Source: Cyanophora paradoxa CCMP329 (lineage: Eukaryota > Plantae > Glaucophyta). Taken from it: a DNA stretch of 64,000 nt. The notes beneath the pieces were generated by a model. The model ran no database searches, had not been told where the DNA came from, and saw only the letters and a list, made by a program, of their open reading frames with translations. Location: NCBI GenBank assembly GCA_004431415.1, contig QPMI01000557.1, positions 24,313 through 88,312 of the forward strand, read 5' to 3'. Position 1 is the first letter of the stretch; the number at the start of each line of letters is the position of its first letter. The position numbers and the translations under genes were made by a program. Below, one piece after another: positions 29,531 to 52,800 of the stretch.

Positions 29531-29687
29531 GCCCCGGGGCCCCGCGCAGACCCGCAGCGTGCGGGTAGCTTTAGTTGGCAGTTAGCAGTACTAGTTAGCC
29601 GTAGGCATGCAGCTGGATTTTGTGTTTATAATTACGATGTCACAGTGTCCGGATCCGTGGCCGATACCGAAATTTTACATTTTAATT

Positions 29688-30135
29688 TGACATTTTCGGG
29701 GATGCATCTCAAGAATATCTGAAATTCTGGCGAGCACGAGATTCTGGCGGCAATTCGGGGCAAGGCGGTTTCCGGTTTCGACATTTAATTTTCCCGGAGA
29801 AAAGCCAACAATCTCAAGAATGTCAGAAATTCTGGCGAGATTCTGGCAACAATTCGGGGCAAGGCCGTTTCCGGTTTCGACATTTTCCCGTAGAAAAGCC
29901 AACAATCTCAAGAATGTCAGAAATTCTGGCGAGATTCTGGCAACAATTCGGGGCAAGGCCGTTTCCGGTTTTGACATTTTCCCGGAAAAAAGCCAACAAT
30001 CTCAAGAATGTCAGAAATTCTGGCGAGATTCTGGCAACAATTCGGGACAAGGCGGTTTCGGGTTTTGACATTTTCCCGGAAAAAAGCCAACAATCTCAAG
30101 AATGTCAGAAATTCTGGCGAGATTCTGGCAACAAT
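29688..30135. repeat. 94-bp tandem array (~4.5 copies), ending at the virus left junction
   Basis: ctcaagaat recurs at 29708, 29813, 29907, 30001, 30095; the last unit stops at ggcaacaat. Confidence 0.92.
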
Positions 30136-30695
30136 TGTTGTATACGCATGGACCTCACACCCGGGCAATTCCGCTTCGCTCCATAGCCCCCGATTCCATG
30201 CGTTTCAAGTGTATACCTCCAGCGTTTCATTAGTTATTTCACCATATACGTCTACCCCACCGATCCAGCTACGTCTACTATCCGATTCCCTAGGTCGAAG
30301 CCTAGCAATATCTGACGACTATACAAGGCAGAGGAGACAACAAGAATAGGCGAAGAGGAGCGCTGCCCCCATGAGCGCGGTCTGCAGAGCAACGTGGCAG
30401 AATAGTCTAGACGATATTAATGTGTACAATGAAGCTATCAGAGGAAACACGTTTAGCTTAATTTTAGGCGATAATGAAGTGTACATCGAAGCTAACAGAG
30501 GAAGCACGTTTAGGTTAATTTTAGGCGATATAGATGAGTACGATGAAGCTAACAGAGGAAGCACGTTTAGGTTAATTTTAGGCGAAATGATGAGAACATT
30601 GAAGCAACCAGAGGAAAAGCGTTTAGCTCTATCTAGGCGATAATGATGAGTACATTGAAGCACTTCGTGTCCCAAGAGCGCTCTGGTGCGGCCTC
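30136..30695 (+). repeat. Left terminal inverted repeat of the virus (560 bp), with four internal 56-57-bp tandem units
   Basis: Reverse complement of 57796-58355; I noticed one mismatch (30457). Internal units start at 30431, 30488, 30545, 30601. Confidence 0.96.
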
Positions 30696-31030: not shown

Positions 31031-31725
31031 ATGGACAGGAACAATCTGAGAGCTGAAATTCGGAGTCTAGCGCAGGAGCTACACAATCTAAGGTACATTA
31101 ACGGAACATATTTGAACACACTGATGCGACTAGCAGACCCACAGAGGGGAACCCACACACAAAATCTTCGAGCTAATCTGTCAACATTGCTTAGACTTAG
31201 ACAGACGAACCGGCCGCAGCGCCCTTTGTACCAGTCATGGATAACAAGTCATTTTGAGAACGAACGCAATGCTCGAATTGAAGCCACGCGAGAGTTTGAT
31301 GAAATTGTAGAGTATGGGATCTCGAATTTATTTCGCGAGACAGGTCGAGGCGATACCGTGTTAAATTATACTCATTATGCATATCCGGGGTTGTTATTTA
31401 CCAAGGATGTTTTGGATATTGAACCGACTCCAATGCCAGAGCGGGTTAAAGAGATCACGATTGAGTTTCTGAGAGAGCTGCGAATTCCAGAGAAAATAGG
31501 ATCAAGCGTTCTAATTCGGTTTCATTTCGATAACTTTCGCATGTATCGCACTCAACTAGCAACAATCGAAGAGGGCACAATGCAGTCGCTCTTGTCAAAT
31601 CTGGCTGAAAAGATGGAACAATGGATGCTAGCGCAGCAGCCATATGAAGACAACGACCTTTGGCCAGTAGTGAAAATAGAGGTGCTCATTGCAGAGAACG
31701 CTGCAGGCGCACTTGGAAACGTACC
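31031..31725 (+). CDS. polB: N-terminal part of viral protein-primed DNA polymerase B (possible terminal-protein region), interrupted by the LINE
   Basis: ORF reads ...AAGALGNVP into the TSD and joins in frame with 38196 (KLPFNGK...) when the LINE and one TSD copy are removed. Confidence 0.88.
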
Positions 31726-32285
31726 CCCCGGAACCTGGCGAGGCACGTAGCGGCACAGCGGCAGCAGCGCGGAGCGTGGTACGCACCTTTTCTTAGCCTC
31801 TGCGTGATTCTGGAACTCTCCTGCCTTCGGGCGCAAACTCTCTGCCGTATGGCGCAAACTCGTGTTACCGTCCCTGTTGCCCTGCGTGCGCACTCACGTG
31901 TGCATTGCCTTGAACTCCGTTCGGCAGCCGAAGCTGAAAAGTACGAAGCCCTGGCCACCGGTGTCCGCACGGCGTCATCCGTCAGTTGTGCTTTCGCCTC
32001 TAACTCCTGTCAAGCATGTTCTCGTTACATTCTACGTCATACATACGCTCAGCTCAGCTCTCGCGTGCGGGCATCGACTTGGGCAGTTACCGTTACGTGG
32101 GTTGTGCGAAGTGACTCTGCTGACGGCCGATTAACTGCGCACTCTGTTATTTTTACAGCTGATGCCAAGCCAAGCTCTCGGGTTTTCGGCTCTCATCTCG
32201 TAACCCTTATACCTCTTTTCGTCGCTGGGACTGCCCCCCCGCCCAACATTCATCGCCTTCGTGCACCGCCGTGGCCTGATTAAAT

Positions 32286-34217
32286 ATGGTTAACATTGCA
32301 TCCTTGAATGTGGGAGGGCTCAACAGTCCCAACAAGCTTCAGAAATTTGTGGAACGTTGCCGGAAGTTTGCCATTGCCCACAAGATAGACATCCTCTGCT
32401 TACAGGAAACTAAGCTGCGGGAATTTGATGCTGCTGGCCACGCCTTAGGAAAGCTCGAAAAGATTGCAACTGCCTGGCGAGGCCCATTCTTCCACTCTGC
32501 TCCGACTCAATCCCGCTCCACTGGTGTTGCCATCATGGTCACACCCTTCTTCGCTGCAGAGCACGAGGTTACGCTTGCTCGTCAGGATTCTGATGGACGC
32601 TTTATATCCGTATCTATTGCGTTTAAGGCATCGGGTTCCTTCCCGGCTACGAAAGTACTCTTGGCTTGTGTCTATGCCCCCGCTAGTAATAACAGAGACC
32701 GCCTGGACTGGTGGCAGTCTTGTGTGCAGGCTGGGTATCTCTCCGCCACTATGCCTATGCTTCTTATCGGAGACTGGAATCACCGCACTCCAAAGCCTAA
32801 TTCCCTGCAGCGCTCGTACCTTCGCACAACGATGACCTTCCACCAGCTTGATGATCTTGCGAACCATGCTCCGCCGCCTCCTGCCGGCGAGCCTGCATCT
32901 GCTTTCGCCCCAACTTATTCGCGCATTGTTAGCCTTAAAGCTGTTAACTCGCGCCTCGACTTTGCTCTTGCAACCAAGTGGTTCCAGCGCCGCCTTGCCA
33001 CGTACTCGCTCCTAGCGCCGTCTGATGCGCTCCATCTTCAGCTTGACCACCGTATTGTTGTTCTCTCCTTTTCAGGCCCTCGTGTGCACCGTCACTCGCC
33101 CCGGTCCCGCGTGCAAGCGTTCCCGTACGATTTTGTCAGCAACCTGCCTGGACAGTACTCTCAGCGCGGCGACCCAGTCTGTCTTGACCCAGCTCTGCGC
33201 AAGCGTACGGAAACGCACTTAACTCAGTTCCTGAACACTGTCCTGCAAGAACGTGGGGACAATGGGGTAGTTGTTGATGCTGCCGCCTTTGATGACACAT
33301 GGCGCGCATTCTGTAAGCGGCTCTGCAAAATGGCACGTAAACACAGAGCACATGTGATAAGCAAGCTATACACGCATGAGCGCGCGGCGTACAAGGCGCT
33401 GGGCGATGTCGAGGTGAAGATCTACCGCTTGCCGCCCGGCTCCGATGCTGTCGCGCTGTACCGCGAGCGCACCCAGAGGCTTGAATCCCTGCGCGAACTT
33501 CAGAAGAAGGTCTCTCTCAACAATCGCCAGCTCGCTAGACTTCAGCACCGGCTCACGTTTGAAAGCGGCTCTAAGCGCGACTGGGCGCGGCTCGCCAAGC
33601 CCTCCTCCGTTGTTCCCCCGCCACTGCACTTCACCTCGGATGGTTCCACTGCTGTCGCTGTTGAGCCTGCCGCGGTTGCGAACTATTTGGCTAGGAAGCT
33701 TGAAGAACTGGGCGCTCCTACCCCTGCTTTCCTGTTGACTCAGACCTCTATCCTCGACTCTCTCTGCCCCCCTCCTGAACCCCCCGAGGACCCTACTGTT
33801 GATATCCCCCTTCCTGCTGCCCAGGATAATCCTTCCGCTGCTGCTTTCATTCAGCAATTTGGGGACGACCTCTTGCCTCATGTTCAGGGCACGGTCCCTC
33901 CTGCCTGGCGCACCCAGTCTAAAATCTCACCTGATGACGTAGCTTTTTCCATCAGTAAAGCATATGCCCATGGGGCGCCAGGCCCGGATGGGATACCCGT
34001 TGGTGTCTTTAAGATGCACATTAAACCTTGGTCTGTTTTCCTGGCTGCCTACTTCCAGAAGGTTGCTTTTCAAGGCTTCCTTCCTGATTTTATGCGTGAC
34101 TTGACCTATACTTTCATCTGGAAACGGGCTGGCCTACCCACTGATGCCTCGAAATACCGACCTATTGGAGTCTCTAACACGCTCCTGCGCCTTTTGAGCG
34201 GACTATGGTTACGCTAG
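32286..34217 (+). CDS. LINE ORF2 part 1: AP-endonuclease and RT N-terminus
   Basis: SLNVGGLN, DILCLQETK, GVAI, GRF, VYAP, IGDWN, SRLDF, DHR; then APGPDG and KYRPIGVSNT. Confidence 0.92.
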   Translation: MVNIASLNVGGLNSPNKLQKFVERCRKFAIAHKIDILCLQETKLREFDAAGHALGKLEKIATAWRGPFFHSAPTQSRSTGVAIMVTPFFAAEHEVTLARQDSDGRFISVSIAFKASGSFPATKVLLACVYAPASNNRDRLDWWQSCVQAGYLSATMPMLLIGDWNHRTPKPNSLQRSYLRTTMTFHQLDDLANHAPPPPAGEPASAFAPTYSRIVSLKAVNSRLDFALATKWFQRRLATYSLLAPSDALHLQLDHRIVVLSFSGPRVHRHSPRSRVQAFPYDFVSNLPGQYSQRGDPVCLDPALRKRTETHLTQFLNTVLQERGDNGVVVDAAAFDDTWRAFCKRLCKMARKHRAHVISKLYTHERAAYKALGDVEVKIYRLPPGSDAVALYRERTQRLESLRELQKKVSLNNRQLARLQHRLTFESGSKRDWARLAKPSSVVPPPLHFTSDGSTAVAVEPAAVANYLARKLEELGAPTPAFLLTQTSILDSLCPPPEPPEDPTVDIPLPAAQDNPSAAAFIQQFGDDLLPHVQGTVPPAWRTQSKISPDDVAFSISKAYAHGAPGPDGIPVGVFKMHIKPWSVFLAAYFQKVAFQGFLPDFMRDLTYTFIWKRAGLPTDASKYRPIGVSNTLLRLLSGLWLR

Positions 34218-35812
34218 CCAATCCAATCTTGCAACTCATCATTCCTGAAGATCAGTTTGGATTTGTACAAGGTCGGGATGTTCATAAAAACATCTTTGCA
34301 GTGCTGGCCACGTATACACGCATCCGCTACGCCAATTATGATTGTGTTATTGGGTTCGACTCGGATCTCAAGTCTGCCTACGATCTGTTGCTCTGGGTTA
34401 TTATGGCGCTCGTTCTCCATGTTCAACAGTGGCCCTGGCTTATCCGACGGATGCATCACTGCTTGTACAACCCTAGAGCTCCCCTCCGTGCACGTGTATT
34501 TGCGAATGGGCTCTTCTCTTCTGTTTTCTCACGTCTTGTGGGCACCATTCAAGGTGGTCCCTGGAGCCCAGTTTCTTTCATTCTCTCGATCAGCCCTCTA
34601 CGTTCTCTCTTGCTTTCGCTCACTGATATACCCCGCCCTGTTGGCACCCCCCTTGTCCAGTTTGCTGACGATATTTATCAACTGTTCCTGCTCCGCGCCC
34701 AGGGGCTATCTCTGCGTGACTCCCTCTTGGCTATCCATGCACGTTTTGGCTCTTTTAAACCTCTCTCTGGTCAGCATTTATCTATGGAGAAATCTCTTGC
34801 AATCGTCCTCAGGGAACCTGCTCCCTCATCTTTGGATCTTGATCCTGCTGATCCCCTGCCTTTCCCTGTTCTTCGCGCCTCTGAGCTCGACCCCGCCTGC
34901 CATAAGCAGCTGGGTTTCCCGCATCAGCTCCTTCTTGATCGTGAGCATCATCAATCATGGAACATGATTCAGTATAAAGCGACCTTCTTTACGGAGACAG
35001 CTGTTGATTTCCAGTCCTCCCTTCTTGGACGGGGTCGCATAGCCTATGCCTTCTGTCAGGGCGTATTGAGCTTCTATATTCGGGCAGTTCCAGCACCCCC
35101 TCTTATTCTCCGGGCTATCTCAAAATCCCTACAGACCTTCGTCTGGAAGCGTTCTTCGAATTCTGATGCGTTCATCTTACCCCATCAGGGCATGACCACT
35201 GCTTCGTGTCGGCCTGTATCTCTCGGTGGTCTCGGAGCACCCTCCCCTGAACACTTCCAGCTGGCCTTTGCCGCAAACTCTTTGGAATCGTGGCTTGCTT
35301 CCCCGGCAGCTCTTCCTGGTCGAGAAATTATTGAGGCTTTCACGGAGAATGGTGGTTTCGGGCTCTGGCTTCCTTTTCTCAACAGGACTGATCGCCTGGT
35401 GAAACCACTGTGGCCTCCGCCTGCTGACCCGTTCTTTGCCATCTTCGAAGCTTGGCGGACTATTTTCGATGTCAAGAAGCCCTGCTGCGCTTGGGATTTC
35501 CTGCGTATGCCGATCATGCACCCCTGGTATAAGAAAGACACGTACTATGAGCGTGACTTCACATTTTCGCTGCTTTTCCGTCTCGGCTTCCGTTTCAACT
35601 ATCAAATTTGGGATTTCTCTGGAGAACATACCTCTATGTCGAGCCCTCCTATCCCGAGCAACTGCGCGACCAGCTGCATGCGCTCAATAATCGACTTGCG
35701 CAAGAGGTTTGGCGTTGTGGTAAAACTGCAGACTGGAAACACGAACCTGGAGGTCTCGCTATCGGCCCTTTCTCGAAACTTGCTGCTGAGCGCGTCTCGC
35801 TCCAGGGAGTAG
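34205..35812 (+). CDS. LINE ORF2 part 2: reverse transcriptase core (-1 frame relative to part 1)
   Basis: QFGFVQGR, DLKSAYD, GTIQGGPWSP, QFADD, EKS, GGLG. Confidence 0.93.
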   Translation: MVTLANPILQLIIPEDQFGFVQGRDVHKNIFAVLATYTRIRYANYDCVIGFDSDLKSAYDLLLWVIMALVLHVQQWPWLIRRMHHCLYNPRAPLRARVFANGLFSSVFSRLVGTIQGGPWSPVSFILSISPLRSLLLSLTDIPRPVGTPLVQFADDIYQLFLLRAQGLSLRDSLLAIHARFGSFKPLSGQHLSMEKSLAIVLREPAPSSLDLDPADPLPFPVLRASELDPACHKQLGFPHQLLLDREHHQSWNMIQYKATFFTETAVDFQSSLLGRGRIAYAFCQGVLSFYIRAVPAPPLILRAISKSLQTFVWKRSSNSDAFILPHQGMTTASCRPVSLGGLGAPSPEHFQLAFAANSLESWLASPAALPGREIIEAFTENGGFGLWLPFLNRTDRLVKPLWPPPADPFFAIFEAWRTIFDVKKPCCAWDFLRMPIMHPWYKKDTYYERDFTFSLLFRLGFRFNYQIWDFSGEHTSMSSPPIPSNCATSCMRSIIDLRKRFGVVVKLQTGNTNLEVSLSALSRNLLLSASRSRE

Positions 35813-36861
35813 CTCTCTGTCGCGTTCGCCTTCTTCCTGACACACAGCTCGCTTTCCATGAGATTGACGTGCCCTGCAATGTTTCGATTGACAGTCCCGT
35901 TGCCCTCCCCGATGTGCTTGCGATCCGGCCCGCGGCCCGTGCGATCGACTTCATTCCCGTGCCTGCGCATGCGCTTAGCCTTGTTAAGAACGCTTGCAAG
36001 TTGTCCTCCATGCCCGCACTCGTCCGGTTCCTCATGAAGTCGTTGCAGCTTTCCGACCTTGCACTCCGTCCGCTGCCACCGTCGTCTTCCCGTACGTTTG
36101 CGTTCTACTCTGACCGCGAGAACATCAGCGATCGCTCAAAGGAAGAGCTGCGCCTCTCTAAGTCGGTTGCGTACAAGCTGCCTGCTGCCCCGTCGCGTTT
36201 CACGGTTCACGACGTGTACAAGTACCTCTCCTCCCACGCTTTCATGGCGCCGACGACCGCTGAGACTAAGTGGCGTGCTGATCTCTCTCCTAAGTTCCTC
36301 TGGCCGCCAGGCTACGATGCTCGCACCGATCGCTTCCCCTGGTTCAATACGGTTATCCCCGACCTGCGCTACGCTCTCACGCAGCGCGTCCTTGACGGCT
36401 ACTTTGCTCTGCGCTACAACACCCTCCGCACATCGTCCCGCATGGCTGCTATGGCTGCGCGTGATCTTCAGCGTCCCGCTTCGGCGAATTTGCTTGACAG
36501 TGAGCTTCTCTCTTCGCTATGTCCGGTCTGCCACCGGTACTGCAACGCACTGCACGTCTTTGCTCTTTGCCCCGTAGTGCAGCAGTTTTGGTCGCTTATC
36601 TTCCATGCCTGCAGCTCCAGCCGATGCCCATTCCTTCTGCACGATTCGTTGCCTGGCTGCTCACTGGCTCGGTCCGTTTCTCTGATACTTGGATGTTTTT
36701 GCAGAACTGGGAGTGGCAGGTTGTTCGGATTCTTGGTCTGCACGTCATTTTCCGCTCGTATTCTCTGGCCTATCGTACAGGTCGCTCTGAAGCTGCTGCT
36801 ACGTTTGCGATGGACCCTGACATACAGCTGCCCCTTACGCCTTCCTCCAAAACCGGTTTGA
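35608..36861 (+). CDS. LINE ORF2 part 3: zinc-binding (zf-RVT-like) region
   Basis: FTVHDVYKYL...KW...W and CPVCHRYCNALHVFALCPVVQQFW, typical of L1-clade ORF2 C-termini. Confidence 0.8.
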   Translation: MGFLWRTYLYVEPSYPEQLRDQLHALNNRLAQEVWRCGKTADWKHEPGGLAIGPFSKLAAERVSLQGVALCRVRLLPDTQLAFHEIDVPCNVSIDSPVALPDVLAIRPAARAIDFIPVPAHALSLVKNACKLSSMPALVRFLMKSLQLSDLALRPLPPSSSRTFAFYSDRENISDRSKEELRLSKSVAYKLPAAPSRFTVHDVYKYLSSHAFMAPTTAETKWRADLSPKFLWPPGYDARTDRFPWFNTVIPDLRYALTQRVLDGYFALRYNTLRTSSRMAAMAARDLQRPASANLLDSELLSSLCPVCHRYCNALHVFALCPVVQQFWSLIFHACSSSRCPFLLHDSLPGCSLARSVSLILGCFCRTGSGRLFGFLVCTSFSARILWPIVQVALKLLLRLRWTLTYSCPLRLPPKPV

Positions 36862-37919
36862 AGACGGCCACTCTGATGTCTGCCCTGTTTCGCGAGCTCG
36901 ACGATTTTATGGACATGCTTCCTCGCCGTTTACCTCGTTTCAAAGCTACTTACGTCCGTGGGGACTTCCGTTTCATCTCTACAGCTGACCCATCTCACTC
37001 TTCGTTTTGTTCTAACCTCTTGGACGCGGCTCGTGCTTATGACCATACCCTAGCCTCTTTTGAGCACTGCGAGCATATCACTCAGCCTGCCCCTAGCCCC
37101 GATTTAGCTCCTAGCTCCCTTGTTGCTCAGTTTGCCTATGCCAGTGCACGGCCTGTTCTATTGCAGCGGCTCGAAAAAGAGGATCTTGAAGGCTATGAAT
37201 CCTCCCCTGACACTGGATCAGACTCCTCAGAGCTTTCCGACCTGGGCCCTGATGAACCTGATGATTCTTCTACAAGCTCCTCTTCGGATGACGACGACCC
37301 TCCTGAGGCACCGGACCCTGCTCCTGCTCCTGACCCTCTACTTCCTCCGTCTCCTTCGCCCTCTCACACTCCCCCTCACCCCCCGCCGGACTTTGACACT
37401 GAGGACGAGCCGCCTCTTCGCCGTCGCCGTGTCGATGCTTTGGACCCTCCTGCGCCAGCTCCTGGCGTTCTCGATGATGATGCTGATGATCCCAGCTCGC
37501 CTCCGCTCTCTCCTCAAGTTATTATTGACCTCCTTGATCCCGAACTTGAAGCTTTATTTCTTTCTTCCCCTGAAATTGCTGCTGATATTACTGCGGATGC
37601 TCCCAATGTTGGGGGCCATTCGTCGTCTCTTCCTTCTTCCTCTGTTCCTATGGACACTGATCCTGTCTTGGCTCCTGATTTCAACCTGAAGCGCCGTCGA
37701 CCCTCTACCCCTGCTCCTCCTTGCCTCTCGGATGCCTATGGTTACCCAGACGGTACTATTGACCCATCTTTTCTTCCTTCCGTTAAACGTTTGCATCTTT
37801 CCTCTCCTGCTGACCTTTCAGTTCTCAGTGATGATTCGGGTTCTCCTGTGGTGCTCATTGACTATGATGCTGAAGCTGATGCCATGGACCTTCAATTTCT
37901 CTCCTCGACTGGGGTTTAA
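36519..37919 (+). CDS. LINE ORF2 part 4: acidic, Pro/Ser-rich C-terminal extension
   Basis: Long open frame in -1 relative to part 3; D/S/P-rich, with basic patches LRRRR and KRRRP. Confidence 0.6.
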   Translation: MSGLPPVLQRTARLCSLPRSAAVLVAYLPCLQLQPMPIPSARFVAWLLTGSVRFSDTWMFLQNWEWQVVRILGLHVIFRSYSLAYRTGRSEAAATFAMDPDIQLPLTPSSKTGLKTATLMSALFRELDDFMDMLPRRLPRFKATYVRGDFRFISTADPSHSSFCSNLLDAARAYDHTLASFEHCEHITQPAPSPDLAPSSLVAQFAYASARPVLLQRLEKEDLEGYESSPDTGSDSSELSDLGPDEPDDSSTSSSSDDDDPPEAPDPAPAPDPLLPPSPSPSHTPPHPPPDFDTEDEPPLRRRRVDALDPPAPAPGVLDDDADDPSSPPLSPQVIIDLLDPELEALFLSSPEIAADITADAPNVGGHSSSLPSSSVPMDTDPVLAPDFNLKRRRPSTPAPPCLSDAYGYPDGTIDPSFLPSVKRLHLSSPADLSVLSDDSGSPVVLIDYDAEADAMDLQFLSSTGV

Positions 37920-38195
37920 AGCTCTAAACAGGATCGGGAATACCCCAGGCCGGCATTAGGAAGAGGCCCGCATTGGGATTTCGCCGATTGTTTTCCAGGT
38001 TTGCGTGTATGAGCGCCGGACCGCCGGGGCATACATGGTGAACTGTATAGGCGCCCGTCTGCGCCGCCACTACCCTTGTCTGGTTGGTTCACTGTCGATT
38101 GTGCTTCGGGCCTTCGGGTCCTTCGCCTTTCGTCAAAACCGCACAACCGGCTTGGGCGTGTCTTATACATACTCTTCTTCTTCTGGAAACGTACC

Positions 38196-40827
38196 GAAAC
38201 TCCCATTCAATGGCAAAGCCCTGACCATGAATAAGATCTACTGTCCGATTTCACCAGAAGACAACTGTGTGCTTGAGTGTTTTGAATATGTGAAGCTAAA
38301 CCCTGGAAGAATAAGCCTTGATCGAATTTACAAGCAACTTCAGAGACTGGACTACGGAGGGATTAGAACACAGCTAGGACTGCGGCGAGGAATGATATCA
38401 GTTGATGTGCCAACGATTAATAAGCTGAGCGCTTTTTACAGAGTAGACACGAGTGTTTTTGAGTTTTCGCAAGGAAAATTTAAGCCGCTTTTTGCAACCG
38501 ATCTAGGATTTGAAAAGCGTGCTCACCTTTGTATTGTCGAGGCGCACTGCTACCTGATTAAGGATAAAAGAACAACTGAAATGGAGAAGTGCAGTGCCTG
38601 CGGGAAAATGCAGTTCGAACTGGAAAGACACAAGCTAACCTGTCAGTTTTGTGCTAGATGTCGTTGCGCCTACAATCCAATTGAAGATCACACAAACAAA
38701 TGCGTTGCCGCCATCAGAAACAAAGGTGTTATTGGAAGAAAGATTACCCCTTGCGAAAAGGAGAGTGAATTTACAGCGATGGATAGCGTGATAGGGGCAG
38801 ACTTTGAAACATTTCCTTGTGATGGCAAGACCCACGTTCCATATGCAGTTGACACAGACATAATTTCCAAGGGCGAAATTGTAGGAACCAAGATGTTTTA
38901 CGGTCCTGAAACATTAAATGAATTCATGCTATGGCTGGATGGATGGACAGAGAAGACCACAGTAGTATTTTACAACGGTGCGGGGTTTGATCTGATATTC
39001 ATATACCGATGGCTGATTGAGAATAGGCCAGACAGCCAGGTGAACGTCATGCGTTCCTCGGGAAAGATTAAGAGCATGAAATGGAAGACGACAGCAGGAG
39101 GAGAGTTGACGAGTTTTGACCCATGCCTACATATTCAAGGTTCACTAAAACAGGCTGGAAAGGACTACGGCTGCACGACAATCAAAGGAGACTTTGACCA
39201 TCGCAAGATCAAGACGTGGGCAGACGTTGAGACATACAAGGAGGAATGGGGAGAATATCTAAGAGCCGATGTGCGATCAATGACGGAGTTATACATGAAA
39301 TATTCGAGTACGAGCTTTGAGCTATTCGGAATAAATGTGAATTCCAAACAAACACTTACAGCCTCATCAATGGCGTTTCAGATTTACCGGCAGCTGATGA
39401 AGACAGAGCTGCAACTTCCAAAATACAGCGAAGATCAGATTTTTCGCAGAGCAATTTACGGAGGTCGCTGTTTACCATTCAAACGCAAGTTTGTCTCGAA
39501 GGGACCAGATGATTACTTGGTAGATCTGGATGTGGTCTCTCTATATCCGACCGCGATGTACTTTAACCAGTTTCCTACAGGTAAATTTAAGCTAATCAAT
39601 GAACCGGAGGCTTTGGAGCGTTTTAGAAAGTTTATGCTTAGCAGAAAAATGGAGCAACTGTTCATTGCGAGCATCAGTGCGAAAATTCCTCAAGATCTTG
39701 TGCTTTCTCCGCTCCCTCGTCACGAGTCGAATTTGGGCTGGTCGAACCTGAAACCGATCGAGCGCGAGATGTATACATCGGTTGATATCTACAGGGCGAT
39801 AGCGCTTGGGGTCGAAATAACAGAGGTTCATGAGGTGTATTTATTTGAAGGAAAGGAGAGAATGTTTAAAGATTATATCGAGAAGTTATACTGTATGAAA
39901 GCACGATCAAGGAAGGGCACAGCTCAATACGCAACAGCAAAGATTCAATTAAATGGTCTTTACGGAAAATTTGCCCAGAGACCTGTGATCGAAACAACAG
40001 AGCTAGTTTCTAATTACCGCCGATTTAAGGAGCTACAGCGGACATCTACGATTACAGACATCGAAATTGAGAGTGAAACACGGATGTATGTGACATATGA
40101 AGTACCTGAGAGCAAACGTGATGCTTGTGTGTCGAAGCCATGTTTTATTGGAGCATTTATTCTGTCCTACAGTCGCGAGATAATGGACAGGTTCCTAGTA
40201 AAAATGAACTCTTATAAAGATATCGAAGCCATGCCGTTTTACACAGACACAGACTCGCTAGTGGTGCACAGGAAATTTGCAGAGTTGGTGAGTGATTGCA
40301 TGAAGCGACCTTACTCTGTGGAGGGGATGTCAGAAGAGGAGGCAAACAGGGCGATATGCGAGAACGAGCTGGGAAAACTAGATTACGATATCCAGGGGCA
40401 CATCGTGGAGGCGTATTTCGTTGGACCCAAGGTGTACAGTTGTCGGTACGTGAAAGCGAACGGTGAATCGGACGTGCATGTGCGTGCCAAAGGAATACCA
40501 AAAAGCTGGATCGAGGAGAACTGGCTTTCGAGTAATCCGGAGATGAGGAAGGGGCACCTCGAATCTCGGGTTGCTTTGGAAGCGTTCAAGCAAATGCTTG
40601 AGAGCCGGTATCAGCCGGAGTGCAAAATAGAGTCTAAACTATCTCGTGTCTTCAAACCGAATGGAAAGCAACGCGAGGAGGGGATAGGTTTTAGTTCAAT
40701 CATTCAGATTCCATTCAGCAGAGTATTAAATAAGACGGAATACACAAAGCGAAAGATAATTTCGGATGACTATTACAGCACAGTTCCTCATGAGTACATC
40801 AGCCAAAATTCAGGAGACATACTATGA
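38196..40827 (+). CDS. polB: C-terminal part of viral protein-primed DNA polymerase B (exonuclease and polymerase domains)
   Basis: ExoI ADFET, ExoII FYNGAGFDL, ExoIII YLRADV, YGGR, motif A DVVSLYP, motif B KIQLNGLYGKF, motif C YTDTDS, GPKVY; Cys/His cluster upstream. Confidence 0.96.
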
Positions 40828-41926
40828 TCCAGAAACAGGGCTTCAGTCGGCCACACGTATTGCAAAGAAGTTGAAAATACCAGTTTCCAGGGTTAGAGAA
40901 GTGCTGGAGAAATTATCGACAGCGCAAAGATTTGCGAGGCCGCAGAAAGAGAAACCATTCACAAGTATAACATACGACAAAGCAGAGAAATACTACGAAG
41001 TAGATCTAATCGACGTGACTCCATACGCCAAAACAAACCGCGGCATTCACTTTATAATGAACGGAATAGATGTGACGACGCGCAAAGCGTATAGCATACC
41101 TATGAAGACGAAATCGGAAAGCACTCTGCTAGCCAGTTTGAAGAAATTGATTGATGAACTGCCCTCGAAGCCGGACGTCATTCAGACAGATCAGGAGTTT
41201 AAGGGAACCGCAGCAGCAATGCTGGCGAGTATGGGAATCAAGCATAATGCAGTGGAGGCGCATCGCCCGCAAGCAAACGGCAAAATAGAAAGATTTAATG
41301 GTACGCTTAAGCGCATCATTGCGAAGTACATGGATGCGTACGACACGGACAGATATATTGAAAAGCTGCCTGCTTTTGTGCGCAACTATAATTCGGCAGA
41401 ACATAGGTCAATTGGTACATCGCCAAACGCTGCAGCAGAGAATCCGAAGGAAACTATTGCACGCAACGACTACCAGAGAGAAGTGTACGAGCAGCAACAC
41501 TACCTGAAGGAGGACGAATTTAAAGTAGGCGATAGCGTGCGGGTGCAGCTAGAGAAAAAACGTTTCGACAAATCTTCAAAGCCGACGTATTCAAAAGAAA
41601 TCTATACGATTATGGAGATAGGTGGCTTTGGACCGCTGCTCAAATTTACGCTTTCGGGCTACAACAAAGCGGTGAACTACCAGCAACTTTTAAAGGTCCC
41701 AGTAGATTCAGAGGAACGTCGTGCGGGAAATGCAGCACAGAGAGCAATGCAACGACGAAAGAAGGAGCTAAATCTGATGCGAGAGAACTTAGATCGAGTG
41801 GACATAGAAAAAAATAAGAGGCTGCTTCGCCTTCAAAAGCAACTTGCGACAGCTGGAACTGACAAGTTAAATCCTGGTGGAATATTAGAAAGAACAAAGA
41901 CCAGAAGGTACATCAAAGGGCTATAA
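40790..41926 (+). CDS. int: Retroviral-type (rve, DDE) integrase of Polinton type
   Basis: YYDP N-terminus, EVDLID (D), IDVTTRKAY, QTDQEF (D), NGKIERFNGTLKR (E), YNSAEHRSIGTSP, FKVGDSVR, FDKS...YSKEIYTI. Confidence 0.95.
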   Translation: MSTSAKIQETYYDPETGLQSATRIAKKLKIPVSRVREVLEKLSTAQRFARPQKEKPFTSITYDKAEKYYEVDLIDVTPYAKTNRGIHFIMNGIDVTTRKAYSIPMKTKSESTLLASLKKLIDELPSKPDVIQTDQEFKGTAAAMLASMGIKHNAVEAHRPQANGKIERFNGTLKRIIAKYMDAYDTDRYIEKLPAFVRNYNSAEHRSIGTSPNAAAENPKETIARNDYQREVYEQQHYLKEDEFKVGDSVRVQLEKKRFDKSSKPTYSKEIYTIMEIGGFGPLLKFTLSGYNKAVNYQQLLKVPVDSEERRAGNAAQRAMQRRKKELNLMRENLDRVDIEKNKRLLRLQKQLATAGTDKLNPGGILERTKTRRYIKGL

Positions 41927-42188: not shown

Positions 42189-42297
42189 GTTTGCGGGTTT
42201 TTCGTCACAAACAATGTGCGAAATCTTTTTATGGCATAAATCGCAGGTTTGTGTTGCGTTAAAAATCGAACATAAAATCCGAGATATAATTCAAAGA

Positions 42298-42582: not shown

Positions 42583-42626
42583 AGAGATCGCAATCTCAGA
42601 TTGTAAAGTCGCAGACAAGCCGCCAG

Positions 42627-43148
42627 ATGGAGGTCACTATTCCTGAAGGCGCTGTAGCAATCCCGATTGGTGGTATCCGGAATCATCGTCGAGTAATTGT
42701 AGCTTATGCATTAGTCAGTCAAGACGATTCTCAACGTGTTCTTGGATACCGCTGGAGTTTAAATAAATATGGATATGCCAGAACCATGATCAATGGAAAG
42801 ACCGTGTATTTGCACAACTACATCAGCGGCAACTTGGAGAACGGATTGACTGTTGATCACATAAATCTGAACAAACTTGATAATCGTCGCGAGAACCTGC
42901 GACTGGCAACAAAGCGGCAGCAGAATTTGAACCAAAACCGACGGGTCACAAACACATCAGGATTTATTGGAGTTAGCTTACATCAGCAGATTGGTAAATG
43001 GGAGGCGCGATATCGGATAAATGGTCGCAAAAAGCACATCGGTTACTTTACCACTGCTGAGGCAGCAGCTCGTGCCAGAGACACCTTTGCCCTTCAGCAT
43101 ACTTCCGAATCTGATCGTCCATTTCTGCGTCTAAATTTTACAACCTAA
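42627..43148 (+). CDS. HNH homing-type endonuclease with C-terminal AP2 DNA-binding domain
   Basis: VYLHNYI...TVDHINLNKLDNRRENLRLAT..QNLN; NTSGFIGVS...GKWEARYRINGRKKHIGYFTTAEAAARARD. Confidence 0.92.
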   Translation: MEVTIPEGAVAIPIGGIRNHRRVIVAYALVSQDDSQRVLGYRWSLNKYGYARTMINGKTVYLHNYISGNLENGLTVDHINLNKLDNRRENLRLATKRQQNLNQNRRVTNTSGFIGVSLHQQIGKWEARYRINGRKKHIGYFTTAEAAARARDTFALQHTSESDRPFLRLNFTT

Positions 43149-43775: not shown

Positions 43776-44522
43776 TTAAGATAAGATTTTAAATCGCCTC
43801 TTTTTGGGATGAACAGGCGAAGACTCTTCTTTTTTAGACTCTTCTTCTTGTTTTAGCCATTTAGAGAAACGAAAACTCTTATCTTCAACCGCTTTATCGA
43901 TATACCAGGCAGTATCATACTTCGTTCCATCAAGTACTAGACACTGATAATCATGCGCCCAAGTTTCGAACAAGGCTAAGAACTCATCCTTTGGGAGATG
44001 TGAAAACTCTCTATAAATTGTCTCCAGTTCGGTGTGATTAGAGTAACTGAAGAAAAAACAATAGTCAGAGTTCGATCTTATAGATTGACTTAATGCTGTT
44101 AGTTTTTGGGTCATAAGAATCGTACTTATATTAAAATGTCGGCCCTGCGTAAAAAGTCGATTTACAGCCTTGCTATTTCGCAGATCCACTGTTTCAGAGG
44201 CGGCAACAAGATCGTCCAAGACTAGCAATATCTGCGGCGCTTTCTTTTTGTTTTCAATCAAATTGCGCTGTGAATCAATGATTTCTGCAACGATAGATGG
44301 CTGAAAATCGTCGTAAAGCTCTTTAGTTATTGCAGAATACTCGCCGTTGAATTTGGTGGCGGTAAACACAACGACTCGATTAATCTTTGGATATAACAGT
44401 CTAAGTAAATGCTTTGTGCAATAGAAAGACTTGCCGCTATTGGACTTCGATATAAATAGGGCTTTGAATGGTACCCTCATATCGCTAGGCTGGAACTGTG
44501 CGAGCTCGTCTGACCCATCCAT
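43776..44522 (-). CDS. A32-like (FtsK/HerA superfamily) DNA packaging ATPase
   Basis: Walker A variant ISKSNSGKS, Walker B LLVLDD, QGRHFNIS, LMTQ, IRSNSDY. Confidence 0.93.
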   Translation of the reverse strand: MDGSDELAQFQPSDMRVPFKALFISKSNSGKSFYCTKHLLRLLYPKINRVVVFTATKFNGEYSAITKELYDDFQPSIVAEIIDSQRNLIENKKKAPQILLVLDDLVAASETVDLRNSKAVNRLFTQGRHFNISTILMTQKLTALSQSIRSNSDYCFFFSYSNHTELETIYREFSHLPKDEFLALFETWAHDYQCLVLDGTKYDTAWYIDKAVEDKSFRFSKWLKQEEESKKEESSPVHPKKRRFKILS

Positions 44523-44542: not shown

Positions 44543-45931
44543 TTAGAGGTTCACCTTACGAAGACCCGCAGCATCAACAATTAGTACAGTGTGAAGGAGA
44601 GCTCGAACCTGGACGTAAATCTTGTTGTTTGCATCGTATGCAGCAGGGTTCATGATATTCAGGAAGCAGCTGCTGGAGTTCGTCAGATCTACGAAACCAG
44701 TTTGAGCAGCATTTCGAATCGATTTATCCCCACTAATGCAAAATGGCAATCCAGTCAGCACGTACCTATTCAAAGGTGCATCTAGATTGGAGCACTTGAA
44801 GACATCAGCGATGAGTTCGGCACCTTGCAGGAGAGGAACGGGCTCATTTGAATAAAGTCTCTGGCCATTCAATTCGCAGGAAATAGTAATATCGCGAGCA
44901 TTAGCCTCGGTTTTGAGGACACTGTGTTTTCCATCAGTTTGGTTCATGTTTGGCTGCTTGCGAATGCTAACGAACAGGCCGTAGCAAAGTCCACTGATTT
45001 GAGACAGATTAATCCGGGTGGGCGCTCCCGCACCAGCATAAGTAATTGAATCAGCATCAACCCAGCCGACATCGGTAGCGGGAATTGCGATTCCAGACGT
45101 TTTGACTTTCTCAATCACCTGGGCAAAAGTGGCCTCATCAACGTTGATACAATGAGCAATAATCTTTGGATTAGAAAGCTCCGGATTGGCAGGGGTGACA
45201 CTGAGAACATTGGGAGTTATATTCTGGCCGATGTTTGCAGGGGAAGCAGCAGCGGCTCCAACACTACCAAGGCCATCTTCTTTAGTGGCATCACCGCCGA
45301 TGGCATATTCTGTTACAAACCTACCACCATAGCTGGTTTCAACAAAGCCCTGGGCACGATCACGGAACCAAACCTCGACAGACACCTCGCCAGAAAGAGC
45401 ACCAATTGGGAGCACAGAACCCTCCCAGGGACATGGGATTTTTACACTGAAAATACCTCCAGTGCGATTGCTCCCCTGAGGTGGCGTTCCATGGAGCCAG
45501 CCACCAGAGCGGTATTTCTTTTTGAGCTGTGCATCATCATTGAAAATCAGAGCGCTGTGAACAAGCCAGTCCTCGGGGACAATGTAGCTGTAGGAAGCAT
45601 ATTTGATTTCAATTCGCTTTACAAGAGCACCAACAGACCGCAGATAACCAGTGCGAACCAGGTCAGTGTCACCAGTAAAAGCGGTCAACTCGGGCAGGGT
45701 AAACTGGAGTTCGAGCCCCTGAAGGAAGTTGTATCTGGGAAGGAAGTAGGTGACTCGTTTACCGAAGCAGTCTCCATAGTCATTGCTTGGGTTGACAACA
45801 ACACGAACAGGCTTGGTTTGGCTCGTTAGACCCAACATAAGCTCATTGTTCATAAAGAAGTCCTTCGCTTCCTGCGGAGTTGTCAGGAGCTCTTTGAGGC
45901 CGAGCCGCTGCAAATTTTGAGTGACATCCAT
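44543..45931 (-). CDS. Major capsid protein (probable double jelly-roll)
   Basis: 462 aa, between ATPase and minor capsid gene; FGKRVTYFLPR...LELQFTLPEL, VKRIEIKY, LPIGAL..EVSVEVWF, GFVDLT resemble Polinton-like/NCLDV MCP motifs. Confidence 0.82.
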   Translation of the reverse strand: MDVTQNLQRLGLKELLTTPQEAKDFFMNNELMLGLTSQTKPVRVVVNPSNDYGDCFGKRVTYFLPRYNFLQGLELQFTLPELTAFTGDTDLVRTGYLRSVGALVKRIEIKYASYSYIVPEDWLVHSALIFNDDAQLKKKYRSGGWLHGTPPQGSNRTGGIFSVKIPCPWEGSVLPIGALSGEVSVEVWFRDRAQGFVETSYGGRFVTEYAIGGDATKEDGLGSVGAAAASPANIGQNITPNVLSVTPANPELSNPKIIAHCINVDEATFAQVIEKVKTSGIAIPATDVGWVDADSITYAGAGAPTRINLSQISGLCYGLFVSIRKQPNMNQTDGKHSVLKTEANARDITISCELNGQRLYSNEPVPLLQGAELIADVFKCSNLDAPLNRYVLTGLPFCISGDKSIRNAAQTGFVDLTNSSSCFLNIMNPAAYDANNKIYVQVRALLHTVLIVDAAGLRKVNL

Positions 45932-48145: not shown

Positions 48146-49846
48146 CTAGGTTTTCTGCAAGCTTACCGCCGATTTGGTCCTGACGGAATCAAAAAGGAGC
48201 TCGCAACCAGAAACACAACTTGGTATCAGCGAAGAGAGAATTACATTAAGAGGCGACTGGGAGGGCGTAATGGAGCACCATTTTGGGAGAAAGATAAATC
48301 TGGCAGAACTATTCCAACACGTCTTGGACTCTCTCTGATTTCCTGGGCATTCATGCCGCCGCCTAATTAATGTAACGTCCCGGAAATCAAGCCGGAATGC
48401 ATTCACATTTATAAATTCGTTTGTTATAATTTGCACATAGTTATATACCTGTGGGGTGAACAAATGCGAGTCACTATGCATTAGATCGAAGCCTGCCATT
48501 GTTGGGTTCGCAGCAAGCACATTTGCTAGGACCGTATTTTCAAAAAGCCTCCCATCTTGGACATATCCTAAGTTGGTCAGAATGCTGAAATTAAATAGGA
48601 CTCCGGCAGCAAATGCTGGCCCATACATAATGATTTGATGTAGCTCAAAAGGCTTGGGAAACTCGACTTTAATCCAGGGATTAGGTAAAGTGCCCCCTTG
48701 GAACCCTGTTGAGTTGGGTCGCACATGAGAAGGTGGGTGCAATTCCTCAAAGTCGTTGCTTGTAATGTTTGCATCTGGAATTATAAACCAGTTGACATCA
48801 AATGGCGGCTCAACTGTTAAAGAAGACGATATGATTAGTCTCTCATCGTTCAGTAGGTCATAGTTCGCCAGTAGAAAGCTGCAGAGTGCATTTATTTTAG
48901 CATTTATTTCGATTTGTTTCAGCCATAAATCTGTCGTGGAAATCAAATAAGAAATATTCGATGGGGAGGCATCGTCAAGCTTGCTCATGACTGCAGCTGG
49001 TAGCGGAACACTTAAACGCCAGTATCTTGTTAGATTCCTATCCGCATCAACTGGAAGCAGTTCCTGCATTTGAAAGTGCGATTCCAGCTCGCTACCAGCC
49101 ATTAGCATAGAAATGATTGGGCTGCCTGAGAGGGATAGGATCCAGCCCAGTGCGCCCCAGCCTGACGTCTCCGAATTCGAAAAGCCTGCAGTCAATTGCT
49201 CACTGGCTTGGACTTCACCACAGCTAATGCTCACAAGAACAATTGGATCTTCTGCATCGTAAATTTTACTGGCGTGGCTGAGTGCAGCAACTGAGGGATT
49301 ATTCAAACAGGCAATTGCCCCGTCAACAAGGTTTTTGTCCCCTAGAACCTTCGGTGGAAAGAATGTAGGCGCTGCAGAAGATGCTCTCACTGCATCACGA
49401 ATCAGCGTGCTTGAATATGGCCCATCCTTCGTAAAAACTACGGGCTGCATCCGAACTGTATCAAACGCTGTTATTAATACATCTTTTGTCGATTCTGCAA
49501 TTGTGTAGTCCTGGGCAACGTCTGTGAGCACCGACTCCAGAGGGTTTGCATCATAGCGGCTGCCTGAGAGCAAGCTTGTCAGTGATCTTGGATTTGCAAA
49601 TATTGTTGGCAGGTTCGTTTGATATAGACTCAAGATATCACCTGCAGAATATCGGTAAGCAAGAACAGAGCCTGGAGCTGATGGGATCGCCAATCCGGCC
49701 GCTATTATTGCCCCTGTTGAGGTGCCTGCAAAGAAATCAAACAGCTGTGGTATTGCTTTCCCAGTAATCGCCTCAATCCGTTGTAGAATTCGGGCTATGA
49801 CTATTCCACGAGCACCTCCACCTGATAGTGAGAGAATGACCTTCAT
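48146..49846 (-). CDS. Patatin-like phospholipase with C-terminal extension
   Basis: LSLSGGGARG, FAGTSTG (Ser nucleophile), ASSAAPTFFP, LVDGA..NNP (Asp). ATG at 49846 after an AT-rich spacer; the C-terminal end is less certain. Confidence 0.92.
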   Translation of the reverse strand: MKVILSLSGGGARGIVIARILQRIEAITGKAIPQLFDFFAGTSTGAIIAAGLAIPSAPGSVLAYRYSAGDILSLYQTNLPTIFANPRSLTSLLSGSRYDANPLESVLTDVAQDYTIAESTKDVLITAFDTVRMQPVVFTKDGPYSSTLIRDAVRASSAAPTFFPPKVLGDKNLVDGAIACLNNPSVAALSHASKIYDAEDPIVLVSISCGEVQASEQLTAGFSNSETSGWGALGWILSLSGSPIISMLMAGSELESHFQMQELLPVDADRNLTRYWRLSVPLPAAVMSKLDDASPSNISYLISTTDLWLKQIEINAKINALCSFLLANYDLLNDERLIISSSLTVEPPFDVNWFIIPDANITSNDFEELHPPSHVRPNSTGFQGGTLPNPWIKVEFPKPFELHQIIMYGPAFAAGVLFNFSILTNLGYVQDGRLFENTVLANVLAANPTMAGFDLMHSDSHLFTPQVYNYVQIITNEFINVNAFRLDFRDVTLIRRRHECPGNQRESKTCWNSSARFIFLPKWCSITPSQSPLNVILSSLIPSCVSGCELLFDSVRTKSAVSLQKT

Positions 49847-49870: not shown

Positions 49871-52800
49871 ATGTCCTACATCTTGAAGAAGCCAGTGCCA
49901 CTTCGTAGATCTCCAGATTTCGTTGATGATCGACTCATAAATATTCGCGTATTTGGAAGCATCTTGGCAGACTTCAATGCTGATCGTGACATCCACAGGA
50001 CCGAGTTTAGTCGACCAGCTGCATTAATTCTGCGGAACTCCCACGTTGGTGCCCCAGATATTGCACAGAGATTCTGTCTTGGTCCCACTGAGAACTTTGT
50101 TGCTGAAATTATTGGGTCCAGGGCGTTGCCACGACACCTGCGAATTGCCTCCTCAGGCACAGTCTCCAAGTATGATTCTGGTAGATTGATATTTAGGCTC
50201 CAAAATGATAGAGGGGTCCATACATCAGCTCTACGTCTAATTGATGAATCAAATGATGTCGCAAACAAAACTGCGGCTCAAATCACTGGGCGAATTCTCC
50301 TTGGCGAAGATGCTGCAATATCAGTGCTTGCATCACAAATTCAGCCGTTCCCCTGGGACTTACTTTTTACAGCTGCACGAGAAGCAAATCTTCTTTTCGG
50401 GTTTGATGTAAATCAAATCGATACCGAGCCAGCCACCAGGTTCGATATTCCTGGATGCACCTTCGGCTCTATCTTGATTGAGGCTGACAGGCACCTGCTC
50501 CCGGCATTGCATGATAGATATGACCTAGGGCTTCGCACCAGGCAGTGGAGAAATATTCATGGAACTAATATTTATCAGGATGGTAAGAAGGTTAGCACCG
50601 AAGAGCAGGTTATCAACATTTTCAACTACTACTTCGGACCTATTGTCCCTATACCACCTCTTCCAGGGTTACCAAAGCCGCCAATCCCGGATGGACCTGG
50701 TCGAGAGCGAGTTGCTGATGAGACAGTTCCTTTCGGTCAACATATTGTCAGTTGGGAGCAAGTTCGCAATAAACCTATCTTCGAACCGAAAAAACAAATA
50801 GATGAACAGTATTTACCTCCTGAAATCGATATATTAGAGCTTGATGATTACCAATTTGTCCAGATGAGGAAGAGTTTTTACCTGACGGTTTCGACCCGCA
50901 AGAGTATGAGTATGATCAATACGACCCAAATGAGGAAGAGTATTTACCCGATGGTTTAGATCCACAAGAGTATGAGTATGAACAGAATTATGAACCCCAT
51001 GAGGAATATTTAGCAGATGGTCTCGAACCACCAGTTGTGGATTATGAGCAACCTTATGAACCCCATGAGGAGTTTTTACCAGATGGTTTACAACCGGAGC
51101 TTTTTGAGTTCTTTCCAGATTGGGAACAGATCAACAACAAACCAGCGAGATATCCACCAGAGGATCACAACCATGATTGGGATGAGATCTTGGGTAAACC
51201 TGAGAAATATCCACCTGAAGATCACAGGCATGATTGGGGCGATATCGATGGAATTCCACCTGAGTTTCCGCCAGAAGACCATTTACATATTTGGAGCGAA
51301 ATACGAGAGCAGCCCACTTTTGCATCAGCAGGAAATGTATTATTAGGAGATATTAACAATGGTGTGAGTCTCTACCAAAATATAAACACACCAGAAAGAT
51401 TACAATTAAACGATTATTATGTGAATCGTCAGGGAATCGATGCAGGCACCACAATGGACGGTGAATTGTATATTAGACCACCCACAAGGGATGTAATATT
51501 ACCACTTGGTGGTGGAATTGAAATTAAAAATACAAAACCAGGAATCTACTTAACAAACTACTACCCCGATGATGTCCCGATGACAGCAGGATTTATTTCT
51601 CTACCATCTGATCCAGCAAACTATGATAACAAAGATGCAACAATACAAATTAATGTGACTAATGTAAGCGATTTAGACGGATCAAGACCAAAATTAATAT
51701 TTAGCCGTGAGCAACTCGCAGCAGAAACACTTTTAGGAGATCGCGATGATTATAAACAATGTGAGGTAGCATGGATTAAAACAAATTATAATGGTGGAGT
51801 TCCTGAGGGTCTTTTAGAAATCAATCAGAGAGCCTCAGCGAAAAACATTCATAACGAAAATATTTCAAGAGTCGTAACAGAAGATTATTTTAGATGGGAT
51901 AATATCCCTGACGCACCCGAAAAATTCCCACCCTCAGACCATGAACATGTTAAAGCAGATATTACGGATTTTGCACATACTCATGTCAAAGCCGATATTA
52001 CGGATTTTGACCATACTCACACAAAAGCGCAAATCACAGATTTTGCCCACACTCACACAAAAGATCAAATAACAGACTTTGCCCATACTCATCTAAAAGC
52101 AGATATTACAGACTTTGCACATGCTCACACAAAAGCAGATATCACAGATTTTGCACACACCCACCTTAAAGCAGATATTACAGACTTTGCACATACTCAC
52201 CTAAAAGCAGATATTACAGATTTTGCACATACCCACACAAAAGTGGATATCTCAGATTTTGCACATAGGCACAATTGGGACGAAATAGACGAACAGCCAG
52301 TTTTTGCACAATTGAATGCAATCGGAAACGTTTTTAATGGAGTCACTCTTTACCAATCAAGTAATACACCTGAAAGATTGTATTTGAATGATCATTATGT
52401 TAGTCTCAATGGTTCATTTACAGGTGAAACAGGCACACCGATGGTGGGAACTCTTGCAGTAAGATTACCCAGGGATCCAATCGTAAATGGAGTTTATGAT
52501 GGTGATTTTAATGTAGGAGTAAATGATACTTTCCCCAGTATCTATGTTACGAATTATCACCCAGGTGAAACAGGACAAGTAGCCGATTTTTCAGCAGCTA
52601 TTCAAATAAACGTTACAGATCAAAGCGCATATGATGGAGCAAGACCTAAGATAGTTTTCACAAGGGAGAAAGTTGTAAACTACCTTCCTGTTGTGGGACA
52701 ACCCACAGACGATCACGGAAAATGTGAGATGGCATGGATTAAAACGACAACAGGTGGCGCCTTAGAAGTCAATCAGAGAATGGCGGCGAAAAACTTACAC

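Follow-up and report, generated by a model that had tools for sequence, protein, structure and literature searches.

A LINE within the pPolB gene of a single endogenous Polinton-like virus copy in Cyanophora paradoxa

The locus and its endogenous virus

The window (the whole stretch of 64,000 nucleotides from Cyanophora paradoxa that was analysed) consists of host DNA with 71% GC and short-intron genes (WD40, eIF2B-epsilon, VHS, C2H2 and DDX49-like helicase), and it contains an island with 43–46% GC. The helicase exon is 100% identical to one EukProt gene model (P0277) and at most 63% identical to any other, which places the host among eukaryotes distant from the animals, fungi and plants sampled. 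The island (30136–58355) measures 28,220 nt with the insert described below and 21,750 nt without it. Its size and ends are those by which Polinton-like viruses (PLVs) are recognised (15–40 kb, terminal inverted repeats, short target duplication), and so are its genes (protein-primed polymerase, pPolB, with terminal protein and vOTU; integrase and packaging ATPase). The island is a PLV of the type with pPolB and an rve integrase, and the virus appears to have integrated recently, because its 560-nt ends are near-identical. All features are listed in Table 1. No Rfam match was obtained within 28000–61000.

Canonical Maverick/Polinton elements carry a maturation protease of the Ulp1/adenain type and have AG...CT ends. 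The present element, unlike these, ends in TG...CA, and no protease family was detected in its scanned ORFs at E values up to 1, several of these ORFs being without assignment. Polinton-like viruses have already been mentioned for a Cyanophora-like glaucophyte (available parts of PMC12220804 and PMC8502044).

The first-pass annotation of this DNA had described the integrase and capsid genes as open, and both reading frames are. The second of them likely encodes the major capsid protein, an assignment taken solely from a feature search in which the Atlas feature score to the Capsid_N/Capsid_NCLDV clusters was 0.98 and the recognition value was 1835, below the threshold of 2300. A single-sequence fold reached a pLDDT of 32, and no relatives of this protein were found in viral contigs or in 88 loci around distant pPolB relatives.

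Table 1. Positions of viral and LINE features in the window.
Feature	Position	Strand	Remarks
Virus target duplication, left	30130..30135		6 bp, AACAAT; identical word at 58356-58361
Left terminal inverted repeat	30136..30695		560 nt, starts TG; 1 mismatch in 560 versus right repeat
pPolB 5' piece	31031..31725	+	231 aa; helical N-region and predicted terminal-protein-like domain (residues 119-225, Tyr205)
LINE target duplication, 5' copy	31714..31725	+	12 bp, TGGAAACGTACC
LINE (APE endonuclease-RT-zinc finger)	31726..38183	+	6,458 nt, 54.7% GC; polB strand
LINE lead	31726..32283	+	560 nt; 185-codon open frame ending 2 nt ahead of pol ATG
LINE pol ORF	32286..37919	+	About 1,878 codons, four frame pieces
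LINE 3' UTR	37920..38183	+	264 nt; (TTC)3 tail at 38175-38183
LINE target duplication, 3' copy	38184..38195	+	12 bp, TGGAAACGTACC
pPolB 3' piece	38196..40827	+	vOTU-like protease (Cys24, His near 118), exonuclease and polymerase motifs
Retroviral-type (rve) integrase	40766..41926	+	Open; PF13683, E 4.5e-9
HNH-AP2 endonuclease	42627..43148	+
A32-type packaging ATPase	43776..44522	-	PF04665, E 2e-9
Likely major capsid protein	44543..45931	-	Open, 462 aa; feature search
Patatin-like phospholipase	48146..49846	-	E 8e-26
Phage-like tail-fibre gene with S74 chaperone end	49871..55344	+	One frame change near 50850
Right terminal inverted repeat	57796..58355		Ends CA
Virus target duplication, right	58356..58361		6 bp, AACAAT

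Anatomy of the insert

The insert is an APE-type non-LTR retrotransposon (LINE): it is bounded by a target duplication, ends in a simple 3' tail, has no LTR, and encodes APE and then RT in one pol frame. Its length increases to 6,470 nt if one duplicate is counted with it. The 12-mer TGGAAACGTACC that forms the duplication occurs exactly twice in the window and is absent from the minus strand; chance alone would place the same 12 nt on either side of the insert with a probability of about 1e-6. Assignment of (TTC)n as the target instead of the tail was considered and rejected, as there is no TTC run ahead of the 12-mer at the empty site.

Within pol, the APE domain (PF03372, E 2e-11), the RT (PF00078, E 2e-6) and a CCHC finger follow each other in order, and the LINE pieces fit HMM positions 1–242, 448–542, 549–886 and 1116–1154, also in order. 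An extension of about 400 aa with an acidic, Pro/Ser-rich end lies past the zinc finger, and an Atlas search with the residues beyond the finger gave no match. The best match among solved structures was human L1 ORF2p (E 4e-6), and the element would, judged from its sequence, work like an L1-group LINE. With the RT, 280 library proteins were retrieved at E ≤0.001 and one at 1e-10, the best 150 being 23–37% identical; the top relatives that were looked up carried no name (ten of ten). A word-index search, which is a weak one, with the first 643 aa of the LINE among longer proteins gave no match. No further piece of the LINE is present within the window.

The pol ORF is interrupted by one-base frame breaks near 34191, 35631 and 36607. 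At all three, other LINE copies found in public contigs are one base longer, each time within a short one-letter run; consensus error and mutation are therefore equally likely, and the breaks were rejected as proof of an old LINE copy. Neither these breaks nor the frame change in the fibre gene had been noted in the first-pass annotation.

Public contigs were taken from four of 24 runs (X1, X7, X9 and X15; tail region from X1 and X9), X15 being RNA only by guess. In record 9 of X15, positions 31724–32408 are matched without difference and are preceded by 956 letters further upstream that are unlike the window; the 30 letters shown of this upstream part fit the composition of the LINE strand (7% of LINE 30-mers, versus 0.5% for host and 1% for virus). 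The copy in the window is likely 5'-truncated and joined over few shared letters. The open frame in its lead, which is possibly the end of a lost ORF1, matched no Pfam family at the cut-off. Roughly, and by depth, identical LINE 5' ends exist in about two copies (one of them, in record 9 of X15, with the other upstream sequence), the ORF end in about eight and the 3' UTR in at least 50, the UTR being common to many more copies than the ORF.

The interrupted polymerase gene

A LINE that splits a viral polB, with an ORF of 1,108 codons restored by its precise removal, had been proposed from the letters alone, and this was borne out. The upstream piece (695 nt) and the downstream piece (2,632 nt; PF03175, E 3e-59) together give 3,327 nt, i.e., 1,108 codons plus stop, in register and without internal stop; translated separately, they yield 231 and 876 aa, neither with an internal stop. 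In the interrupted gene, the upstream frame runs to a stop at 31750, inside the LINE. In-frame ATGs for the downstream piece are located at 38035 (in the LINE UTR) and at 38227, and the frame is open from both. The closest 11 pPolB homologs have 1,059–1,189 aa and start 180–290 residues ahead of the downstream piece. An N-terminus HMM was prepared from 12 uninterrupted homologs (the top 13 without P0012, whose N-terminus is much longer); the 231-aa piece scored 35.9 bits against it, versus 9.0 for the best of 2,000 shuffles.

The uninterrupted joint was found directly in public contigs, which connect 31713 to 38184 and leave out 6,470 nt, 12 letters being compatible with either side. It was present in all three of the non-RNA runs examined (X1, X7 and X9) and absent from X15. 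The joint depths were 717+344 (X1), 227+122 (X7) and 398+218 (X9), and the contigs taken as single-copy had depths of 73, 22 and 45, respectively. The empty site thereby amounts to about 14–16 times the single-copy depth (ratios 14.4, 15.9 and 13.8), a rough value since depth does not equal copy number.

The AlphaFold model of the 231-aa piece (from a 15-sequence alignment) had a mean pLDDT of 73, with mostly 79–93 over residues 121–220, and the modelled domain comprises four strands and two helices. Its best matches among solved structures were Y-family LF/PAD domains (Z 8.2–9.0, rmsd 2.9–3.6 over 95–106 residues); matches to viral models with Foldseek were weak (mavirus pPolB, E 9e-3; adintovirus proteins, E 3e-3 to 2e-2). 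Terminal proteins of polintons and adenoviruses have been reported to be marked by the LF/PAD fold (bioRxiv 2024.03.18.585575, in the part available). Tyr205, kept in ten of 13 homologs, occupies the loop that would be expected to hold the priming residue. The upstream piece is predicted to be a terminal-protein-like domain, and its earlier designation as a candidate terminal protein is supported by the fold and by the conserved Tyr.

G226, five residues ahead of the break, corresponds in the alignment to a GG motif that all 13 uninterrupted homologs possess; the window has AG. Downstream of the break follow a vOTU-like Cys and His, which all 14 rows of the alignment retain. A self-cleavage step that separates the terminal protein from the vOTU has been predicted, and natural gene splits have been reported at this position (available part of bioRxiv 2024.03.18.585575). 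By analogy with deubiquitinase specificity, the GG motif may mark the position of cleavage. The LINE would have broken the predicted linker ahead of an intact vOTU-like protease-polymerase and left both pieces domain-complete. The prior for a hit within 30 nt of this seam is 0.3% per hit in the element, as reckoned after the fact.

Flanks of other LINE copies

At 38184, at least nine contigs in X1 and at least eight in X9 continue in a manner unlike polB, as do three more in X15. Agreement between the flanks was 0.45 among the contigs listed, which is the chance level (0.47–0.48 for unrelated flanks; 5–95% range 0.44–0.52). Three records of X1 (5, 7 and 8, with 2,016, 1,688 and 4,127 nt and a depth of 71–79) contain 62–82 letters of the LINE end, followed by other DNA of single-copy depth. 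The polB flank accounts for one of at least ten flanks at the LINE tail and lies below the bar for target specificity, which is set at more than 20% of flanks in one sequence type (PMC4494074, in part). Loose ends at 37927 and 37943 indicate that other elements share the 3' UTR of the LINE, and the counted flanks may belong to such elements.

The probability of a hit by chance is 0.02–0.38, given 8–100 insertions, 15 virus copies and 68–110 Mb, the last being contig totals and not a measured genome size. A 24-mer from the LINE tail had no matches in viral contigs. No RT was found in 88 loci around distant pPolB relatives (22–38% identity), which are mostly free viral contigs and hence uninformative in this respect.

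Discussion

The most probable reading, in our judgement, is that the LINE entered one copy of a multi-copy endogenous PLV by an untargeted insertion, which is likely to be a dead end for that copy. The virus, flanked by its 6-bp duplication and bounded by near-identical 560-nt ends, would have integrated recently. As suggested by the anatomy of the insert and by standard target-primed reverse transcription, the LINE endonuclease would then have cut with a 12-nt stagger; reverse transcription would have begun at the (TTC)n tail, stopped early, and been completed by joining at a short microhomology resembling TACC. Other virus copies have this site intact, and many unrelated flanks follow the LINE tail. 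If the LINE loosely favours DNA that is AT-richer and probably silent, the odds of a virus hit in a genome with 71% GC would be higher. The downstream polymerase piece would have lost its promoter and the element exceeds its normal length by 30%, so that autonomous replication would be abolished and packaging poor; uninterrupted sibling copies would be unaffected and could supply polymerase in trans.

This copy of the virus is likely disabled, having no evident promoter for the downstream piece, an oversize of 30% and only a single copy. The packaging limit of adenovirus lies near 105% of normal length; the LINE-bearing element is at 1.30 times its normal length. There is no sign that the LINE-bearing virus multiplied, because identical 5' ends number about two by depth and one of these has a different upstream sequence. 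Insertion as a route by which endogenous viruses are inactivated, as had been suggested for this locus, corresponds to a known route of decay (available parts of PMC12220804 and bioRxiv 10.64898/2026.07.28.741278). As separate observations, pointing away from inactivation, the pieces are domain-complete, two in-frame downstream ATGs are present, and a contig of X15 (depth 3.9) leads from the tail into polB. The contigs of X15 cover the LINE but few viral bins, and they provide no evidence on expression.

It is possible, though rather doubtful, that the LINE family has a preference for endogenous viruses or AT-rich heterochromatic islands with no fixed target word. The majority letters of the X1 flanks contain 10 G+C in 28, versus an expectation of 24.5 for host DNA of the window (0 of 2,000 draws as low), 9.8 for virus-like DNA and 16.3 for low-GC host tiles (3%). 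For X9 the value was 15 in 28 (0.4% for host draws), and the majority letters of X15 were also too low in G+C for average host DNA. These values were derived under an assumed consensus rule, and X1 and X9 likely share loci and are not independent; low-GC host intergenic DNA or other transposons would explain X9 and X15 equally well. Taken together, they hint weakly at flanks with more A+T than host genes, of a composition compatible with viral DNA or with intergenic DNA of low GC. A more distant polB family is also present in these runs, as seen from the loose end at 38227, and the flanks of single-copy depth could be other viruses. A precedent exists in Cafeteria burkhardae, about one in four of whose virophages carry Ngaro retrotransposons, with 91% of type 1 located inside viruses; the frequency here is lower, with about one in 15 copies of this virus hit (available part of PMC8547959).

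A much less probable alternative is that the split gene still works, with a free terminal protein made from the viral promoter and a protease-polymerase made from LINE read-through, as in adenoviruses. The LINE at the seam would then have supplied a stop and an in-frame start as well as a read-through transcript, and thus have converted a fused polymerase into a working two-gene layout of the adenovirus type, an outcome that we consider improbable. It is favoured by the proximity of the break to the GG-aligned seam, which is improbable a priori (albeit reckoned post hoc), by the conservation of Tyr205 and of the vOTU-like Cys and His, by the match of the N-terminal piece to LF/PAD domains, and by the open frame from the ATG at 38035, together with record 16 of X15, which runs from the tail into polB. 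The same split is found in adenovirids and in a coral polinton, but stand-alone terminal proteins have extra helices that are absent from fused ones (bioRxiv 2024.03.18.585575, in part). The motif reads AG instead of GG, X15 is RNA only by guess and its contig reaches 27 letters into the LINE, and the downstream ORF would be the third on the LINE transcript of an element that is 30% oversize; being a single copy, this element shows no sign of selection or spread.

Misassembly, by which the LINE would have been placed into a collapsed virus copy, is very unlikely. None of the contigs listed bridges either LINE-virus junction with 31 letters on each side, and the element has several one-base deficits of the kind typical of long-read consensus error. 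Against this, the exact 12-bp duplication agrees with the empty-site joint, the tail is at the correct end, microhomology is present at the 5' end, and record 16 of X15 (depth 3.9) runs across the 3' junction with no deviation, 27 of its letters belonging to the LINE. Just beyond the target, the depth in X9 (615.8) equals the sum of the two empty-site contigs exactly, so that no junction contig is present there; this run neither confirms nor excludes the insertion, because contigs drop rare variants.

The proposed Tx1-like specificity of the LINE for the site TGGAAACGTACC in viral polB is hardly tenable: the clean 12-bp duplication lies within a multi-copy target and families of the Tx1 clade do target other repeats (PMC4494074, in part), but about 14–16 sites are empty by depth, at least nine unrelated flanks agree only at the chance level, some of them in kilobase contigs of single-copy depth, so that the scatter over unrelated sites named beforehand as evidence against targeting was largely observed, and Tx1 is no more than a candidate clade for an element whose best RT relatives are 23–37% identical and unnamed. 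Tx1 has been described as an animal clade (available part of PMC4494074).

In relation to known systems, the untargeted insertion preferred here resembles the Ngaro case in that a GC-richer retroelement of 6 kb has entered an endogenous virus that is AT-rich and flanked by TIRs, in a protist whose own DNA is GC-rich (PMC8547959, in part). It differs in that Ngaro elements use a tyrosine recombinase and have split direct repeats, whereas the present element is an APE-RT LINE with a target duplication, and in that a preference for viruses is only weakly hinted at. Disruption of PLV genes by RT elements of 4–9.5 kb is likewise known from cryptophytes and ochrophytes; phage-like fibre and patatin genes occur in PLVs, those of glaucophytes included, but the nested elements are often flanked by long direct repeats, unlike here, and in the parts of the source covered none is located at the terminal-protein seam (PMC12220804). 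In Halocafeteria, LINE and MULE insertions are known in PLVs and virophages, with LINEs embedded in endogenous PLVs and a transposon disrupting a viral replication gene, the disruptor of that gene being a MULE and not, as here, a LINE (available part of bioRxiv 10.64898/2026.07.28.741278). The adenovirids and the Stylophora polinton also have the gene divided between terminal protein and vOTU, but in a fixed and expressed two-gene layout, whereas a single recent insertion has placed the pieces 6.5 kb apart in the window (bioRxiv 10.1101/2024.03.18.585575, in part). PLV abundance and repeat methylation are treated as background in PMC10120064 and PMC12344493 (in the parts available).

The LINE itself shares APE endonuclease, RT, CCHC zinc finger, 12-bp duplication, simple tail and 5' truncation with the L1/Tx1 group; it departs from that group in the low identity of its RT to library proteins, in the acidic extension and in having no fixed target. 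Retroelements nested in PLVs and virophages of protists, LINEs included, have been published before. Among the publications that the literature searches listed, none describes a LINE inserted at the terminal-protein seam, although supplements (e.g., Fig. S7 of PMC12220804) may hold one.

Conclusions

On the most probable reading, the locus adds a further clear example of an endogenous PLV being eroded by a host retroelement, with filled and empty sites coexisting in one organism. The LINE belongs to a deeply divergent and apparently recently active family. If this family were biased towards viral islands, it would be the LINE counterpart of Ngaro, and the case would matter more. If the split polymerase worked, the locus would show a way in which a separate terminal-protein gene of the adenovirus type can originate, and gene fission by a retrotransposon would then be a mechanism for a split that has more than one origin in the virus group.

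Retrotransposon tail and extension

Positions of the features described are collated in the table. When public contigs were compared with the window, the depth ratio (contig depth relative to that of contigs taken as single-copy) was about 50 for the LINE 3′ UTR versus about 8 for the LINE ORF, both values being rough, with depth not equating to copy number. Other sequences were joined to the 3′ UTR at 37927 and 37943 in these contigs, one such variant at about 40 times single-copy depth, and the LINE tail is possibly used by a SINE-like or sister family. Two backward joints (37 and 85 nt) were recorded within the tail in sequencing run X9, which suggests tandem LINE-tail fragments at other places in the genome. 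The polymerase extension downstream of the zinc finger, ending C-terminally in an acidic Pro/Ser-rich tract, was without match in Pfam and in Atlas, a protein feature-cluster search resource.

Features of the window
Feature	Position	Length	Remark
Host helicase gene	25387–27740		numerous very short, GC-rich introns
Virus flanks	28840–30135, 58362–60781		165-nt and 80-nt GC-rich arrays
Tandem repeat within virus TIR	30371–30643, 57848–58120	57-nt unit	90-codon frame open throughout
LINE extension	36600–37919	~400 codons	
LINE 3′ UTR (depth)	37927–38183		
Backward joints	38150–38186		X9
Second polB, loose ends	38227–38267		X1, X9
Variable virus region	41841–43135		HNH-AP2 and adjacent small genes
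Fibre-like viral gene	49871–55344	~1,800 codons	S74 chaperone end

Virus and its setting

The virus borders on a tandem array with a 94-nt unit and is flanked by GC-rich arrays of 165 nt and 80 nt. A 12-nt word is common to its right flank and the 94-nt unit; its integration target may be another repeat or a heterochromatic block. Several helicase introns, read by eye, apparently carry GC donors.

The fibre-like gene contains acidic 22-aa repeats and 12-aa repeats of the KADITDFAHTH type, with a single frame change near 50850. Because several public contig joints omit 250–740 nt near the HNH-AP2 and adjacent small genes, this region differs among virus copies. A second polB of the same type, more diverged, was seen at loose ends of contigs from runs X1 and X9; the genome therefore likely holds a further virus family besides this Polinton-like virus.
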